From: Candidatus Binatia bacterium
GTDB lineage: Bacteria; Desulfobacterota; Binatia; HRBIN30
Reading direction: 5' to 3'
Length of the DNA: 64,000 nt
Assembly (NCBI GenBank): GCA_937925685.1
Contig: CALAMI010000008.1
Span: 77,518 to 141,517 of the forward strand
Shown in pieces: positions 24,001 to 30,000 of this stretch; the first letter of the stretch is position 1; each line of letters starts with the position of its first letter. The position numbers are program-made.

Positions 24001-27000
24001 TTGAGAGCTGGTTACATTCGTCCGCTGGTGTTTCTCGGCGATGGGGAAATGGGCTTGGCTGCCGTGCAAAATCCAGTGCGGCTGGCCATCGCCGCCTGGC
24101 CTTGGGGAGCGTACTTGGGCGATGAAGGCATCCGGCGCGGGGTGCGGTTAAAAACGTCATCCTTCCAACGGATGCATGTCAACACCTTTATGACCAAGGC
24201 GAAAGCGGTGGGTAACTATGTGAACTCCATCCTTGCAGCCGTCGAGGCGAGAAAGGCGGGGTACGACGAAGCCATGATGCTCGATACTGACGGTTTCGTG
24301 GCTGAGTGCAGCGGAGAAAACCTTTTCATTGTGCGTAGAGGCGTGGTGAAAACCCCCCCGCTCACGTCCGTTCTGGAAGGGATCACACGTGCCTCGGTGC
24401 TCAGCTTGCTCGAATCCATGTCGATTTCCTGGGTGGAGGAACGGTTCACTCGCGACGAAGCATACATCGCCGACGAAGTGTTCATGACCGGGACAGCGGC
24501 CGAAGTGACCCCAGTTCGCGAAATCGACGGGCGAGTGATCGGTGCAGGAGTACCGGGACCAATTACGCGGGCGCTTCAAGAGCGTTTCACTGCCGTCGTA
24601 CGGGGGGAAGTGGAAAAGTACCGCCACTGGCTTACAGCGGTGACCTGAGCCGTAAACACTTTTGGTGCAATTTGAATTGACAGAGTTGGATGATCCGATT
24701 ATAAGCCCGCTGCCTGGATGTGTGTGGTGCGGAGGAAGAGCAAAGCGCCGTGTGGCGGGCCTTGGCGACGGGGGACGCGACGGAGGAACGGGGAGTGAAG
24801 GGTAAAGTTAGCCTGAGGGTGGTTCGATGCGCCATCGTCACCTTGGTGGCCTCTGTCAGCCTGATGCCCGCACTGCGTGCTGAGGTGACTGTAGAACGCG
24901 GCAGCTCGATCCTGATTTTCCCCAAAGTGATTTCGGACCCCGACGGATTGCTGACCCGCGGGTTCCCCGTGGAGACGATCATCCAAATCTCGAATACGTC
25001 GAACTCGTTGGCATTTGCCCATTGCTTTTACGTCAACGCCGCGCCGCTGGATCCAAGGCAACCACCAGGTCCTTTTAACCCTCCGCAATGGCAAGAGGTC
25101 GACTTTGACATTGTGTTGACCAAGCAACAGCCGACTTACTGGGTGGTCGGTCAAGGGCGCAGGGTTGATCCGACTGACCCTCAGTGCAGCCGGGTGCCGG
25201 CGGTGCTGAATTGCCCCAACGCGGGATTCGATCCTGGAGCTATTCCAGCGGTGCCGCCAAATTTCCAAGGCCAGCTCGTTTGCATTGAGGTTGACGCTGC
25301 GGGCGCTCCCTTGAACGGGAACAGACTCAAAGGTGAAGCGACTTTGATCACACCCGCTGCGACCACAGTTCAAGGTGTGACGATGCGCCTAGGTGAAACA
25401 AGCAAGTACAATGCAGTGGGGATCGTGGGATTGAACACGGATACCAATTCCAACGATGGCGACTTGAGACTTTGCCTTGGAGGGGGGCCTCGACCCGGTT
25501 GTCCCAGTGGGGCGGAGTACAATGGCTGCCCAGATGCGGTGATCGTGAATCACTTCGCGGAGCGGGCTACAATGCCAGCATTGCCCCCAGGGGACATTGG
25601 CAATTCGCGCGTGGATACAGAGGTTACCCTTGTGCCGTGTACCCAGGACTTCGAGAACCAGCTTCCGGGCAGCGTTGTGGTGCAGTTTCGCGTGACCAAC
25701 GAGTTCGAAAACCTCTTTTCAGCTAGTACGACGGTTACGTGTTGGTCGACTTTCCGCCTCGGGGACGCGGCTCGCGTTTTCGACATCAGTTTCCTCGGCA
25801 CTCGTTTTGCCCAGACTCGGATGTTTCCCGGTGGCCCTGAGCAACCTGGTTTTGTCGGGGTTTCCGAGGAGTTCTACAACGACGGAAGAGGAGTGCTTTC
25901 CAGGGCCGCACTCAACCTGCATGTCGAAGGGGAGCGTCCGGGGGGAGATATGATCACCATTCCAGAGGTGGCACCATGAACCGACGCCGCTGTCTTATAA
26001 CCGTAGTGGGCGTGTTTTGGGCTGTCGGTTCTGCGTGGGCCCAGCAGGTCGGTGCTGACCGGGCCGCTGCGATGCTGGTCTTCCCGAAAGTGGTGGTCGA
26101 TACCGCTAATAGTGCTGGCCGTGGTCGGTTGGATACGTTGATCCGCATCAGTAACACGCTGAACAAGCCAATCCGCATGCAGTGTTTTTGGGTCAATGCA
26201 AACGGCCACTGCTTCAACGCGCCCGGGATCATTTGCGACCCTACGCTGTTGCCTCGAGACAATCGTTGCCCGGCAAACTCTGTGTGCGTCCCCGGTTGGC
26301 AGGAGACGGATTTTATCGTGCAGTTAACCGCGCGGCAGCCGGTAGCGTGGCTTGCGTCCATGGGGGCAACGCTGTGTAGCGATATGGCCGATCCAAACTT
26401 GCCCTGTTTTCCGATCGGTGGTGCCGGCAGGCCGAGTCCGACAAACAATCTCGAGAGTCGAGTTCCTGCAGTGCAGGAGGATCCTTTTGTTGGAGAGCTA
26501 AAGTGCATTGCGGTGGATCAAAACGACGTGCCCATCGAGGACAACGGCCTTAAGGGGGAGGCCTTAATCGTTCGCTCGGATGTGCAAATCGGTTCGAACT
26601 TCTTTGACGTGCGCGCCTACAATGCAGTCGGGATTCCAGCTCTTGCGGGCAGAAACAACCGTGACAACGTGTTGGTGCTGGGCGGAAATGGCGCCGAGTA
26701 CGCGGGCTGCCCAAACGTATTGATCTTGGACCACTTTTTCGACGGGGCCGAAGACCCCGTTACGCGGCAAAGCATCAGCACGACGCTCACGTTGGTTCCG
26801 TGCACCGAGGATTTTCTTACGCAACGGCCGACGGCGATGCCGATTCAATTCCTGGTGTTCAACGAATTTGAGCAGCGCTTCTCGACTAGCTTCCGTGACT
26901 TTAATTGTTTCCGGGAATTTCGTCTTTCGGAAATCGACACGCGGGTGCCGACGTTTTCGATCTTCCACGCCGGGGTTTCTGGCACGCTTACGGGCCAGAC

Positions 27001-30000
27001 GCGCATCCGAGGGGTCGTGACGAACGATCGTACGCGGGGGCAGACAGTTCTTGGCGTTGCTGAGGAAATTCGTTCCGGTGGCGGCAGCGCCGCATTCCAG
27101 TTGCACATGCAAGGCGCGCGTCCGCAAAGCGACTTTGTGTACCTGCCTTTTCAGTGAGAACGCAATGAAAATCGGCTCTTTTAGCTTGACAAGGTGGAAC
27201 CACGCAGATATAAGGCCGTCACTCAATCGAGGGGTTCGCCCTGGCGAACACGGTGCGGCGTGATCGAAAGGAGGAGGGTAATGCGTAGGCAGCGAGGGCT
27301 AGTTGGGCTCATGGGACTCGCGGCGTTGGTCGGTTGGGGTGTTAATGCCCGATTGGCTGAAGCCCGCGTCACTACGGAGCAGAGCGCATCAATTCTGGTG
27401 TTTCCGAAAGTGATTGCCACCGCGACCCGGGACACGGTAATCCAAATCACGAACACCTCGAATAACATGCGGCATGCGCACTGCTTTTACGTGGATGGTT
27501 CGCCGGTTAATCCGGAACTTCCGGTTGGTCCGCTCAATCCTCCCCGATGGGTTGAGACAGACTTCGATATTTGGCTCACGCGGCAACAACCTACCCACTG
27601 GGTGGTGTCGACCGGTCGGTGGGACGATCCCACAGACGACTCTTGCCGCGCCGTTGCGTGTAACCCCGTTACAAGCGGCGGAAATAATGGTACTGCAGAT
27701 TGCTGTGACGCTGGTTTCGACCCTGGTCGAATTCCGCCGATGGGGCCAAATTTCACTGGGGAGCTAAAATGCATCGAGGTGGATGCGTCGGGCTTCCCGG
27801 TTCCTGGAAACTCCTTGAAAGGGGAGGCGACCTTGGTGGACCGCGGGCAAGCGACCTTTGACGTGTCGAAGTACAACGCCATTGGCTTGAAGGGCTTTGA
27901 CACGAACAACATGGACGGAGTGCTTTGTTTAGGTGGGGGGGTGAATGCGTCTTGTCCATCGGGGCCGGAGTACGAGGCGTGCCCGCAGACGTGGATGTTG
28001 GATACCCCCTCCGTGAATGCCCCACATCCAGTTATTGAGGACGCTACTACGGGCGTGGAGCTCACGGTGGTTCCGTGTTCCCAGAATTTCGAGACCCAGG
28101 AGCCAACCTCCGTTACACTTCAGTTCGCCATTACAAACGAGTTTGAGCAAACCTTCTCGGCCTCTACGACCATTTCTTGCTGGGCAACTCAGGCGCTGGA
28201 CGACATTAACCCGATTTTCGACGTGACGGCTGTGGGTGGTAACGTGTTGCTGACCCGAGTGCGCGCGGCCGCGGCCACTCCCCGAGGTATTATGGCAGTA
28301 GTCGAGGAAACAGTGTCGCATAGAGCGCTTGGCCAAGCCCGCGTGGCGCACAATCCTCACAACAGCTTTGCCGATCAGTCGGGCCAGGACTTAATCATCA
28401 TTCCGGCTGACCAGATTCAGGCCCCGTAAGGGTGCGGTGCAATGGGTAGAGAAGGGCGACGTCCTAGGAATGGGGAAAGGAGAATGACGATGCGACAGGT
28501 GCGATGGGTTGGCTGGACAGTGGCTGTCGCCGCGGCGCTAAGTGTTGGGCCGAGGCCAGCCGCACGAGCGGATATCGCATCCGATAAGCCCGCGGCGGTC
28601 GTGGTGTATCCGAAGGTCCAGGTGACAGGCGCAGCGGGGGTTAATACCACGATTCGTTTGGCGAACACCAACACAACGAATCCAATTCATGTCCACTGTT
28701 ATTACATCAACGCGAGCTCCTACTGCGTCGGCGGTTTTAACGCCGGCCAAAATTGTACTCTCTCACCCACGGTGTGTACGGGCGGGGGGGTGTGTTTGCC
28801 GAGTTGGCAGGAGACTGATTTTCGGGTTGTACTCACGGCGGGCCAGCCAATTGAGTGGGTAGCGTCGGACGGACTAGCTGACGCGAACTTGCCGCTGCCG
28901 CGCGGTGTTTGCGTTCGCAATCCAACCCGGCAGTGTGGTTCCGATGCGGATTGTAACCCATTCCCCGGCGGGACTTGTACGCAGAGCAACGCTGGTACGC
29001 GGATTCCGCCAGTCCCAGACGACCCATTCATTGGCGAGCTACGCTGCATCGCGATCGATCCCCAGGGCAACCCAATTCCCCGCAACGAGCTCAAGGGGGA
29101 AGGGCAGATTGTTACGGTGACGGCCGCTGGCCCGGTGCCGGGCGGTAGCATCGACGTTGCCGGTTACAACGCGATCGGGATTCAAGCAACCGGGGCTTCT
29201 GACGGCGTCGCGAATCAGCTCACCCTCGGGCCAGGTCGGAGTGGCGAGTACAACGGGTGCCCGAACTACTTAATTGTCGATCATTTCTTCGATGGGGCAG
29301 CGAACCCGGTGCCCGGTACCGCTGCGACAATTTCGACTAACCTGGTGCTGGTGCCCTGTTCGACGGACTACCTACGGCAGATCCCTGGCTTGGCCGTGGC
29401 GCAGTATCTTGTGTTTAACGAGTTCGAACAGAGGTTTTCGACCAGTAGGGCGGTACGCTGCTACCAGGACATGCCTCTCAGCCGTATCGATACCGCGAAT
29501 AGCCTTCGTTCGATTTGGAACGTAAACGTGGCTGGGACTTTAACCGGTCAAACCCGCGTGAACCCGATTGGGGTGCCATCGAGCAACCCACCGTCGATTC
29601 CTAGTGGGTTGTTAGGGATTGCGCTGGAAACGCATACCGGGTTAGTTACCAAGAGGGCTGCTTTCAACGTGCACATGGCGGGCGATCGAGACCAGCCCGA
29701 CGTGATGATTATCCCGTAGGGTCGAAGTTGGTGATTTGGAGAGTGGGCCGACCGTGGGGCAGCGCGGTCGGCCCTTTTTTTTCAAGTGGATTCCGGGAGA
29801 TTACGAAGTACGAAGTCGATGACGTCGGCTTCGAGACGGGTGCCATGGAGGCGATTGTATTCCTGAATCCCAGTTGGGCTCGTGACGTTGACTTCGGTGA
29901 GGTAATCTCCGATCACATCGATGCCGACGAAATAGAGGCCGTCGGCCCGTAGGCGCGGCGCCAGGGTAGCGACAATCTCGTGGTCGCGGGCAGTGAGCTC

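Follow-up and report, generated by a model that had tools for sequence, protein, structure and literature searches.

Paired, probably exported proteins with an ASRAH-like C-terminal half at a conserved locus of the uncultured class Binatia

Two type-1/type-2 cassettes between ilvE and gshB

The window analysed here is a stretch of 64,000 nucleotides from a Candidatus Binatia bacterium (contig CALAMI010000008.1), in which four consecutive ORFs of 382-411 aa (A-D), all on the plus strand, occupy positions 24795-29719 (Table 1). Their presence agrees with an earlier, sequence-only reading of this DNA, as do the flanks, ilvE upstream and a convergent gshB downstream, both of which were identified through the syntenic genes of a related locus, L001 (85-90% identical, with Aminotran_4 and GSH-S Pfam hits). 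Every pair among A-D is homologous (BLASTP E 1e-44 to 1e-100, 32-45% identity) and 72 columns of the four-way alignment are invariant, bearing out the clear homology that had been claimed; the shared motif blocks described earlier are likewise all found and collinear, the last block alone being imperfect (AALNLH, AAFQLH, VAHNPH and AAFNVH in A, B, C and D). The four are not equal copies, however. A and C are 45% identical and B and D 42%, versus 32-33% across the types, so that the subtype order along the array is 1-2-1-2, with A and C as type 1 and B and D as type 2. Of the proposed tandem array of four paralogues, the homology thus stands while the four-fold repetition does not: the locus consists of two type-1/type-2 cassettes, a two-gene unit that has been duplicated.

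Table 1. Features of the cassette locus (positions in the window)
Feature	Position	Strand	Description
ilvE-type aminotransferase gene	23731-24648		Upstream of gene A
Promoter-like site, cassette 1	24677..24705	+	TTGACA-17 nt-TATAAG, ~90 nt upstream of gene A
Gene A	24795-25979	+	Type 1, 394 aa, GTG start, signal-peptide-like N-terminus
Gene B	25976-27157	+	Type 2, 393 aa, ATG start
Promoter-like site, cassette 2	27186..27214	+	TTGACA-17 nt-TATAAG
Gene C	27281-28429	+	Type 1, 382 aa, ATG start
Gene D	28484-29719	+	Type 2, 411 aa; 409 aa with alternative ATG 28490
Terminator-like hairpin and T-run	29745..29784		GC-rich, between D and convergent gshB
gshB	29782-30735		Downstream of gene D, convergent

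The signals around the genes follow the same two-gene unit. The promoter-like site of cassette 2 is kept at the orthologous position in L001, L005, L006, L007, L014, L022 and L040, and across related loci the motif TTGAC[AT]-N16-18-TAnA[AT]N lies upstream of 65/105 type-1 genes versus 0/118 type-2 genes, at a near-constant distance from the type-1 gene. A generic promoter scanner missed the cassette-1 site only because that scanner accepts no -10 hexamer that does not end in T. Spacing from type 1 to type 2 has a median of 2 nt, frequently with a 4-nt overlap, and that from type 2 to the next type 1 is about 100 nt; in the window, the stop of A and the start of B overlap as ATGA, and AGGAGGAGGG precedes the ATG of gene C. 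In the hairpin behind gene D, 10 of the 12 stem pairs are GC, and TTTTTTTT comes next. An Rfam scan of 24500-30000 gave no match, so the cassette leaders carry no known riboswitch.

The N-termini of A-D are Sec-like, each with a basic n-region, a hydrophobic core and an A-x-A-like site (candidate cleavage at LRA/EV, AWA/QQ, AEA/RV and ARA/DI, respectively) and without a lipobox, and the Sec-type signal peptides earlier assigned to all four are visible in each. Similarly, a simple signal-peptide heuristic is positive for 155/169 full-length family members, 6/169 of which have a lipobox-like motif. A-D contain 10-13 cysteines each, or 9-12 in the mature proteins, and the many conserved cysteines noted before are represented by five positions across the family, four conserved at about 100% and a fifth at 91% (C70, C177, C245, C276 and C311, B numbering). 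These features suggest that the family members are exported and disulfide-bearing.

A family absent from curated libraries, with a known fold

The claim that these proteins match no described domain family withstood all of the searches. Pfam at E<=1 gave no match to A-D except for one sub-threshold chance hit, to GCS, in C's signal-peptide region, and a confident Pfam hit over the conserved core, named beforehand as the refuting observation, was not found. Scans of A-D against NCBIfam and PHROGs gave zero matches, and when PDB sequences were searched at E<=10, whole-protein, N-half and C-half profiles alike picked up nothing beyond chance hits (E about 2). None of the 120 homologues listed has a precomputed Pfam domain, and each goes by the name "hypothetical protein". 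A viral or jelly-roll capsid-like identity was likewise not indicated by any phage or virus family match or by a meaningful capsid-fold score.

At the level of structure, the family proteins are predicted to be all-beta, and structure comparison identifies the C-half as an ASRAH/TM1070-like eight-stranded beta-sandwich, with 1nc7 as the sole match at probability 1.0 in a Foldseek search of the PDB; a whole-chain match was absent from that search (TMq 0.23 or below). With an ASRAH-like C-half and no sequence match, the family is therefore undescribed at the sequence level and unnamed in curated libraries, yet its fold is already known and lies near a known superfamily. The earlier notion of an unrecognised family survives for sequence and needs refining for fold. 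The ASRAH superfamily was defined by De Souza, Iyer and Aravind in 2009 (PMC2739507) and includes the sensory rhodopsin transducer of Anabaena (ASRT; 2II7), Thermotoga maritima TM1070 (1NC7) and Pfam PF07100/DUF1362. Its domains occur as dyads or tetrads and were predicted computationally to bind sugars or small molecules, with a cleft at the dimer interface, which in TM1070 is lined by His and Cys (PMC2739507).

The N-half is probably a second ASRAH-like sandwich with long, Cys-containing loop insertions, judging from its strand pattern, although hhalign of the N-half against the C-half finds no similarity (probability 0.1) and an internal duplication is undetectable by sequence. In both halves, an invariant asparagine, N60 (ISNT) and N296 (TNEFE), closes a predicted strand, after which come a turn of 4-5 residues and the next strand. 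ASRAH strand 2 is described as ending in a nearly invariant Asn, which stabilises the tight turn, free of gaps, that leads into strand 3 (PMC2739507); equivalence with N32 of TM1070 is putative. Several ASRAH hallmarks are missing. There is no detectable sequence or profile similarity between the superfamily and the Binatia family, as PF07100 gives no hit at E<=1 and profiles of the whole protein or of either half miss 1nc7 and 2ii7 at E<=10. In ASRAH domains, strand 1 opens with a conserved Trp that follows a polar residue (PMC2739507), whereas the candidate first strands here (LVFPKV and xLTLVPC; alignments A2-A5) begin without a conserved Trp, and the SHEshChhN His/Cys signature is also lacking. 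Furthermore, the Binatia proteins are three times the size of an ASRAH domain, with their loop insertions and an extra N-terminal half, and, unlike the superfamily, they are encoded as obligate type-1/type-2 gene pairs that are confined to Binatia as far as seen.

A likeness of architecture is found in the actinobacterial two-ASRAH surface lipoproteins (family 3, PMC2739507), which share with the Binatia family export, a proposed dyad of ASRAH sandwiches, and gene links to sugar-nucleotide or glycosyltransferase functions with a proposed binding of envelope polysaccharide. They differ in phylum, flanking extensions and neighbours (WhiB, glycosyltransferase and an inactive zincin), in having no described paired paralogue gene, and in being lipobox-Cys lipoproteins, a feature nearly absent from the Binatia family. 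Carbohydrate-binding modules, galectin-like and GOLD beta-sandwiches score against the Binatia proteins as any beta-sandwich does, and the Pfam scan gave no CBM hit. The many invariant acidic and polar residues of motifs such as WxExDF, LKGE and NEFE would fit an enzyme or a metal site just as well as the binding module proposed below.

Spread, inheritance and partners of the gene pairs

The family comprises at least 1795 clusters at 50% identity, and genomes with several recovered contigs have more than one family locus. The ilvE-[pairs]-gshB synteny is retained in 31 loci of Binatia MAGs, and Binatia-type synteny together with the family is also found on several contigs labelled Margulisiibacteriota, Terriglobales, Mycobacterium or Myxococcales. 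Relative to their orthologues in Bacterium HR30, A-D are 89-93% identical, compared with 90% for ilvE, 85% for gshB and 78% for glnE; the family is conserved to the same degree as the flanking ilvE. Strong purifying selection is evident from the dN/dS of 0.02-0.05 for family genes, with gene A about 90% identical to its HR30 orthologue (dN/dS 0.04) and gene D 86-91% identical to its orthologues (dN/dS 0.02-0.05). GC, GC3 and effective codon number of the locus are ordinary. The proposal of a lineage-specific core locus rather than an acquired island is upheld by this composition, the 31 syntenic loci and the low dN/dS, and the locus is native and vertically inherited. Horizontal transfer or a mobile element was rejected on the same composition and on the conserved synteny. 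The ilvE-gshB setting of the window's two pair lineages is uninformative on function.

Pairing of the two subtypes extends well beyond the window. Among 82 sources, the order by subtype is '12' in 39, '1212' in 23 and '121212' in 3, making a 1-2 order in 65/82 sequences, nearly all of them Binatia MAGs. The distance matrices of type 1 and type 2 correlate (overall r 0.80; r 0.95 when paralogues within a locus are compared), and the pairs form three lineages, each keeping its own partners.

In 20/26 cases, the third of these lineages comes immediately after a nucleotide-sugar dehydrogenase (TIGR03026), and upstream of the dehydrogenase are two large secreted PD40/Cys-rich/dockerin-like proteins. 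A type-1 module also occurs at the C-terminus of a 1766 aa surface protein (locus L082) that also carries a dockerin-like EF-hand, CARDB and FG-GAP repeats. Directly after the fusion gene comes a type-2 gene that stands alone and encodes a signal peptide of its own; the fusion gene also adjoins HupE/UreJ and a P-type cation ATPase. Other fusion partners include beta-propellers of the lactonase and Vgb-lyase type, in fusions that are database singletons.

A proposed envelope module and its alternatives

The favoured reading, held tentatively and at somewhat less than an even chance, is that the two products of a pair are exported and form a type1:type2 hetero-oligomer whose binding partner is an envelope glycan or a small ligand and which is able to anchor passenger domains. 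Each cassette comprises a promoter, a type-1 gene and a type-2 gene, in two operon copies at this locus. The products would leave via Sec, stabilised by disulfides, and would most likely come together, in the periplasm or at the cell surface, as a type1:type2 hetero-oligomer. By analogy with ASRAH domains, clefts at the subunit interfaces would bind a sugar or small ligand, probably an envelope polysaccharide component, and the complex would serve the Binatia envelope as a module for binding or anchoring, without enzymatic activity, to which the type-1 module may tether large passenger domains. Gene order, coupling and co-divergence point to the hetero-oligomer; fold analogy and one gene-neighbourhood link are consistent with ligand binding.

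A bolder extension, which we consider quite unlikely, would make the pairs the core of a previously unknown, Binatia-wide system of envelope assembly and display, in which a hetero-oligomeric scaffold of ASRAH dyads is fixed to an acidic amino-sugar polysaccharide with passengers attached. The passengers would be FG-GAP, PD40 or lactonase-type propellers, CARDB and dockerin-like EF-hands, joining the scaffold by their own type-1 module or by docking. There is a likeness to cohesin-dockerin display in the dockerin-like EF-hand pairs of the large secreted proteins beside the third lineage and in the fusion of one dockerin-like EF-hand protein to a type-1 module; cohesin itself (PF00963) gives neither a profile nor a fold match to the A-D family. 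If true, the function would be akin to S-layer anchoring or cohesin-dockerin display, on a different fold.

Several of these features would also suit a purely structural, S-layer-like coat, in which type1:type2 pairs polymerise and large proteins ending in type 1 are woven in, with no ligand role. Near-consensus promoters with leaders of 60-90 nt, several pair copies per genome, exported all-beta proteins and the one passenger fusion with its partner gene directly downstream all fit such a coat. Nevertheless, it is unlikely: conservation at the level of ilvE with dN/dS of 0.02-0.05 is far above that usual for S-layers, S-layer proteins are typically Cys-poor whereas this family has five conserved cysteines, the Pfam scan found no SLH or other known anchoring domain, codon usage is unremarkable with no high-expression bias, and the abundance of invariant polar residues points to a specific site. 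An exported enzyme (a glycan hydrolase, lyase or transglycosylase on a beta-sandwich) with E110/D112 (WQETDF) and E297/E299 (NEFE) as catalytic residues is an improbable alternative, consistent with acidic motifs that are invariant in type 1 and in type 2 (40-74 sequences aligned), with the lactonase and Vgb-lyase type propellers among the fusion partners and with the nucleotide-sugar dehydrogenase adjoining one pair lineage. Very improbable is a role in periplasmic metal binding or trafficking, for instance of copper in a lineage for which copper-dependent monooxygenases are predicted, on conserved H69-C70 and carboxylates; the near-invariant HC dipeptide within a strand, the odd number of conserved cysteines, the His and Cys of the TM1070 cleft, and the cation ATPase and HupE/UreJ beside the L082 fusion can be adduced for it.

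Binatia (Binatota) occur worldwide and have no cultured members; methylotrophy and alkane degradation are predicted for this lineage, and we know of no description of its cell envelope. At least 1795 clusters, multi-locus genomes, ilvE-like conservation, near-consensus promoters and the lack of a curated name together make the family a strong candidate for a major envelope component specific to the lineage. The family is a conserved hallmark of this uncultured class and a good diagnostic marker of Binatia contigs in metagenomes. With it, the ASRAH fold is also seen in a new architecture, much larger, paired and exported, and the paired system allows a test of the long-standing prediction of sugar binding by ASRAH domains at the interfaces of oligomers.

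Two-gene cassettes within the locus

The four consecutive genes of the window, A to D (394, 393, 382 and 411 aa), are all mutually homologous, every pair giving a BLASTP E value between 1e-44 and 1e-100, and their four-way alignment contains 72 invariant columns, with each of the motif blocks listed in the sequence-only reading in collinear position. A tblastn search with A-D over the whole window detected no fifth copy. The N-termini of all four proteins run from a basic stretch through a hydrophobic stretch to an A-x-A-like site and lack a lipobox Cys, which bears out the signal peptides that had been proposed. 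The same reading described a four-gene tandem array; the four adjacent paralogues are there, but they are not equal copies, as A and C (type 1) are 45% identical and B and D (type 2) 42%, with cross-type values of 32-33% (BLASTP). The locus consists of two type 1-type 2 cassettes. A and B overlap by 4 nt and C and D are separated by 54 nt, with 123 nt between B and C. Promoter-like sites precede A and C, leaving untranslated leaders of 60-90 nt (24706-24794 and 27215-27280), in which an Rfam scan found no match.

Coordinates of the family genes and associated features
Feature	Sequence	Position	Strand	Remarks
Gene A	window	24795-25979	+	ORF
Gene B	window	25976-27157	+	ORF; ATG overlaps TGA of A
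Gene C	window	27281-28429	+	ORF; ATG 7 nt after AGGAGGAGGG
Gene D	window	28484-29719	+	ORF
TTGACA, 17 nt, TATAAG	window	24677-24705	+	5' of A, read from sequence
TTGACA, 17 nt, TATAAG	window	27186-27214	+	5' of C, read from sequence
GC-rich hairpin and T-run	window	29745-29784		3' of D
L082 fusion gene	L082	8001-13301		single unbroken ORF, 1766 aa
L082 fusion and type-2 gene	L082	8001-14437		ORFs on contig
Context (ii) block, Bacterium HR30	L027	227-10612		~20 similar loci

A scan of a single genome for each GTDB species yielded 230 coding stretches, from which 78 related loci were retained. ORFs were called in all 82 sequences and each family member was assigned to a type, giving the order 12 in 39, 1212 in 23 and 121212 in 3; the other 17 orders are mostly explained by contig ends, frameshifts or ORF-calling artefacts. 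In these sequences, the type-1 and type-2 genes of a pair lie a median of 2 nt apart, commonly overlapping by 4 nt, and ~100 nt separates a type-2 gene from the type-1 gene that follows. The motif TTGAC[AT]-N16-18-TAnA[AT]N lies 5' of 65 of 105 type-1 genes, at an almost constant distance from the coding region, versus none of 118 type-2 genes, indicating that the transcription unit is the type 1-type 2 pair. In one related locus (L003, GCA_026004195.1), the fourth family gene, a type 2, is broken into overlapping ORFs of 236 and 181 aa (13698-14898), which is a frameshift or assembly error, and another type-2 gene without a type-1 partner lies 1.5 kb downstream.

Pair lineages, neighbourhoods and constraint

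Distances among type-1 proteins track those among their adjacent type-2 partners, with matrix correlations of r = 0.80 overall and r = 0.95 for paralogous pairs within one locus, and average-linkage clustering separates three pair lineages: an A-B type, a C-D type and a third type. Duplication thus involved whole pairs, with partners retained. More than one locus occurs per genome where several contigs were recovered. The A-B and C-D lineages both occupy context (i), with ilvE immediately 5' in 31 loci, gshB convergent on the 3' side in 20, and glnE, trmFO/gid, topA, rsmE and prmA farther out. These are housekeeping surroundings that give no clue to function, and their conservation indicates vertical inheritance. 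The idea of a native locus between core housekeeping flanks is upheld by this synteny, by a flat GC level over the window and by ordinary codon usage, the GC3 and effective codon number of A-D falling inside the range of the other 37 genes. The nearest relative locus is that of Bacterium HR30, where B is 93% identical; A-D share 89-93% amino acid identity with HR30, their neighbours 90% (ilvE), 85% (gshB), 78% (glnE), 67% (prmA) and 56% (rsmE). Against orthologues in HR30 and two further related loci (L001, L005), dN/dS is 0.02-0.05, an approximate value as dS is saturated. A-D are core genes under strong constraint and not surface antigens in rapid evolution.

The third lineage resides in context (ii), where 20 of 26 pairs have a nucleotide-sugar dehydrogenase immediately 5' on the same strand (TIGR03026 at 394-419 bits; nearest equivalogs the UDP-ManNAc and UDP-GlcNAc dehydrogenases, both below cut-off). 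Further 5' are two large secreted proteins that combine PD40 repeats and Cys-rich DUF7107-like stretches with dockerin or EF-hand ends, and 3' of the pair lies the arginine decarboxylase gene speA.

Elsewhere in the window, a minus-strand cluster (2904-13352) encodes a DUF1329/LolA-like protein, an MMPL/RND-type transporter, a BNR/Ycf48-like propeller protein and two DUF1302 proteins, with an unassigned 430-aa plus-strand ORF (10113-11405) between the DUF1302 genes; the cluster resembles a transport module of the envelope that handles hydrophobic substrates. At 252-1970 lies a gene for a member of the aldehyde:ferredoxin oxidoreductase family (AFOR_N and AFOR_C), a tungsten/molybdopterin type of enzyme.

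Predicted fold, fusions and functional reading

Members of the ASRAH superfamily of beta-sandwiches are predicted sugar or small-molecule binders, with a cleft partly made at a dimer interface and a strand 2 that ends in a nearly invariant Asn followed by a tight turn; secreted ASRAH families are always dyads or tetrads (De Souza, Iyer and Aravind, PMC2739507). In the present family, the invariant N296 of TNEFE closes a predicted strand, after which come a turn of four residues and a further strand. Predicted strands of the N-half (33-42; 51-60, ending at the invariant N60 of ISNT; 66-74; 77-80) are matched in the C-half (266-276, 288-296, 301-309, 313-316) with similar loop lengths. From this likeness of strand pattern, we infer that the protein may be a dyad of ASRAH-like sandwiches, the first putatively interrupted by Cys-containing loops at ~81-102 and 127-170. 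The two halves have no sequence similarity by hhalign, and none of the family profiles reaches ASRT or TM1070 by sequence. C70, C177, C245 and C276 (B numbering) are ~100% conserved family-wide and C311 91%, and additional cysteines are gained or lost as correlated pairs (such as that of LCLGGG....CP, phi 0.95), which together with export is consistent with predicted structural disulfides.

Some long representatives carry the family module at their very C-terminal end, behind FG-GAP repeats, CARDB, EF-hand, PD40, or lactonase-type or Vgb-lyase-type propellers. All of these are database singletons, and one, L082 from a Binatia MAG, was verified on its contig: a signal peptide, a dockerin-like EF-hand pair, CARDB, FG-GAP repeats and a Pro/Thr linker precede a type-1 module with 43-45% identity to A and C. 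The signal peptide and typical surface domains of this protein show a module that, on sequence grounds, would act outside the cytoplasm. Directly 3', a separate type-2 gene encodes a protein that has a signal peptide of its own and is ~39% identical to B and D, indicating that the partnership survives a passenger on type 1. This pair is divergent, several family-invariant polar positions being changed in both partners (LKGEA to LTGRA/LTGAG; NEFE..S to NEFGQRFDAS in the partner); such joint changes would, in this single case, fit a shared site. Neighbouring genes encode HupE/UreJ, DUF4331 and a P-type cation ATPase.

Our proposal, a tentative one, is that types 1 and 2 are exported, disulfide-stabilised and assemble as a hetero-oligomer of ASRAH-like sandwiches, which would bind a sugar or another small envelope ligand and may act as a binding or anchoring module. 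A purely structural lattice is an unlikely alternative to such ligand binding, and an enzyme with the invariant carboxylates as its working residues is more doubtful again. A protein that binds or traffics metal through His-Cys and carboxylates is improbable.

A large family of the Binatia

Searching 5.8 billion proteins with a family profile gave at least 969 matches; among the matches listed, every name is 'hypothetical', no precomputed Pfam domain is recorded, and the named sources are all Candidatus Binatia or the older label 'Deltaproteobacteria'. When 1.84 billion representatives at 50% identity were searched exhaustively with HMMER, 1795 clusters matched at E<=1e-3 and 616 still did so at E<=1e-30. 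Some family-bearing MAG contigs bear other titles, namely Margulisiibacteriota, Terriglobales, Mycobacterium, Thermodesulfobacteriota (L010, L039, L044, L047, L067, L073) and Myxococcales (L004, L019, L026, L061, L071). Wherever flanks exist, their neighbourhoods match those of Binatia loci, and these contigs are thus likely mislabelled or misbinned.

The family had been regarded as undescribed, and it is indeed absent from Pfam (2025 copy), NCBIfam 20.0 and PHROGs; a literature search found no paper describing it, the Binatia papers located being concerned with metabolism. We are highly confident that these paired exported paralogues form a large new family associated with Binatia, that their C-terminal domain is ASRAH-like, and that they are encoded in two-gene operons each with its own promoter. 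Viewed by its fold, the family extends the ASRAH sandwich to a new form that is much larger, paired and exported. A lineage-specific exported family without characterisation is by itself not very surprising, and the mechanism remains a proposal; the family deserves real interest, both as part of the biology of an uncultured phylum and as a test case for ASRAH function.
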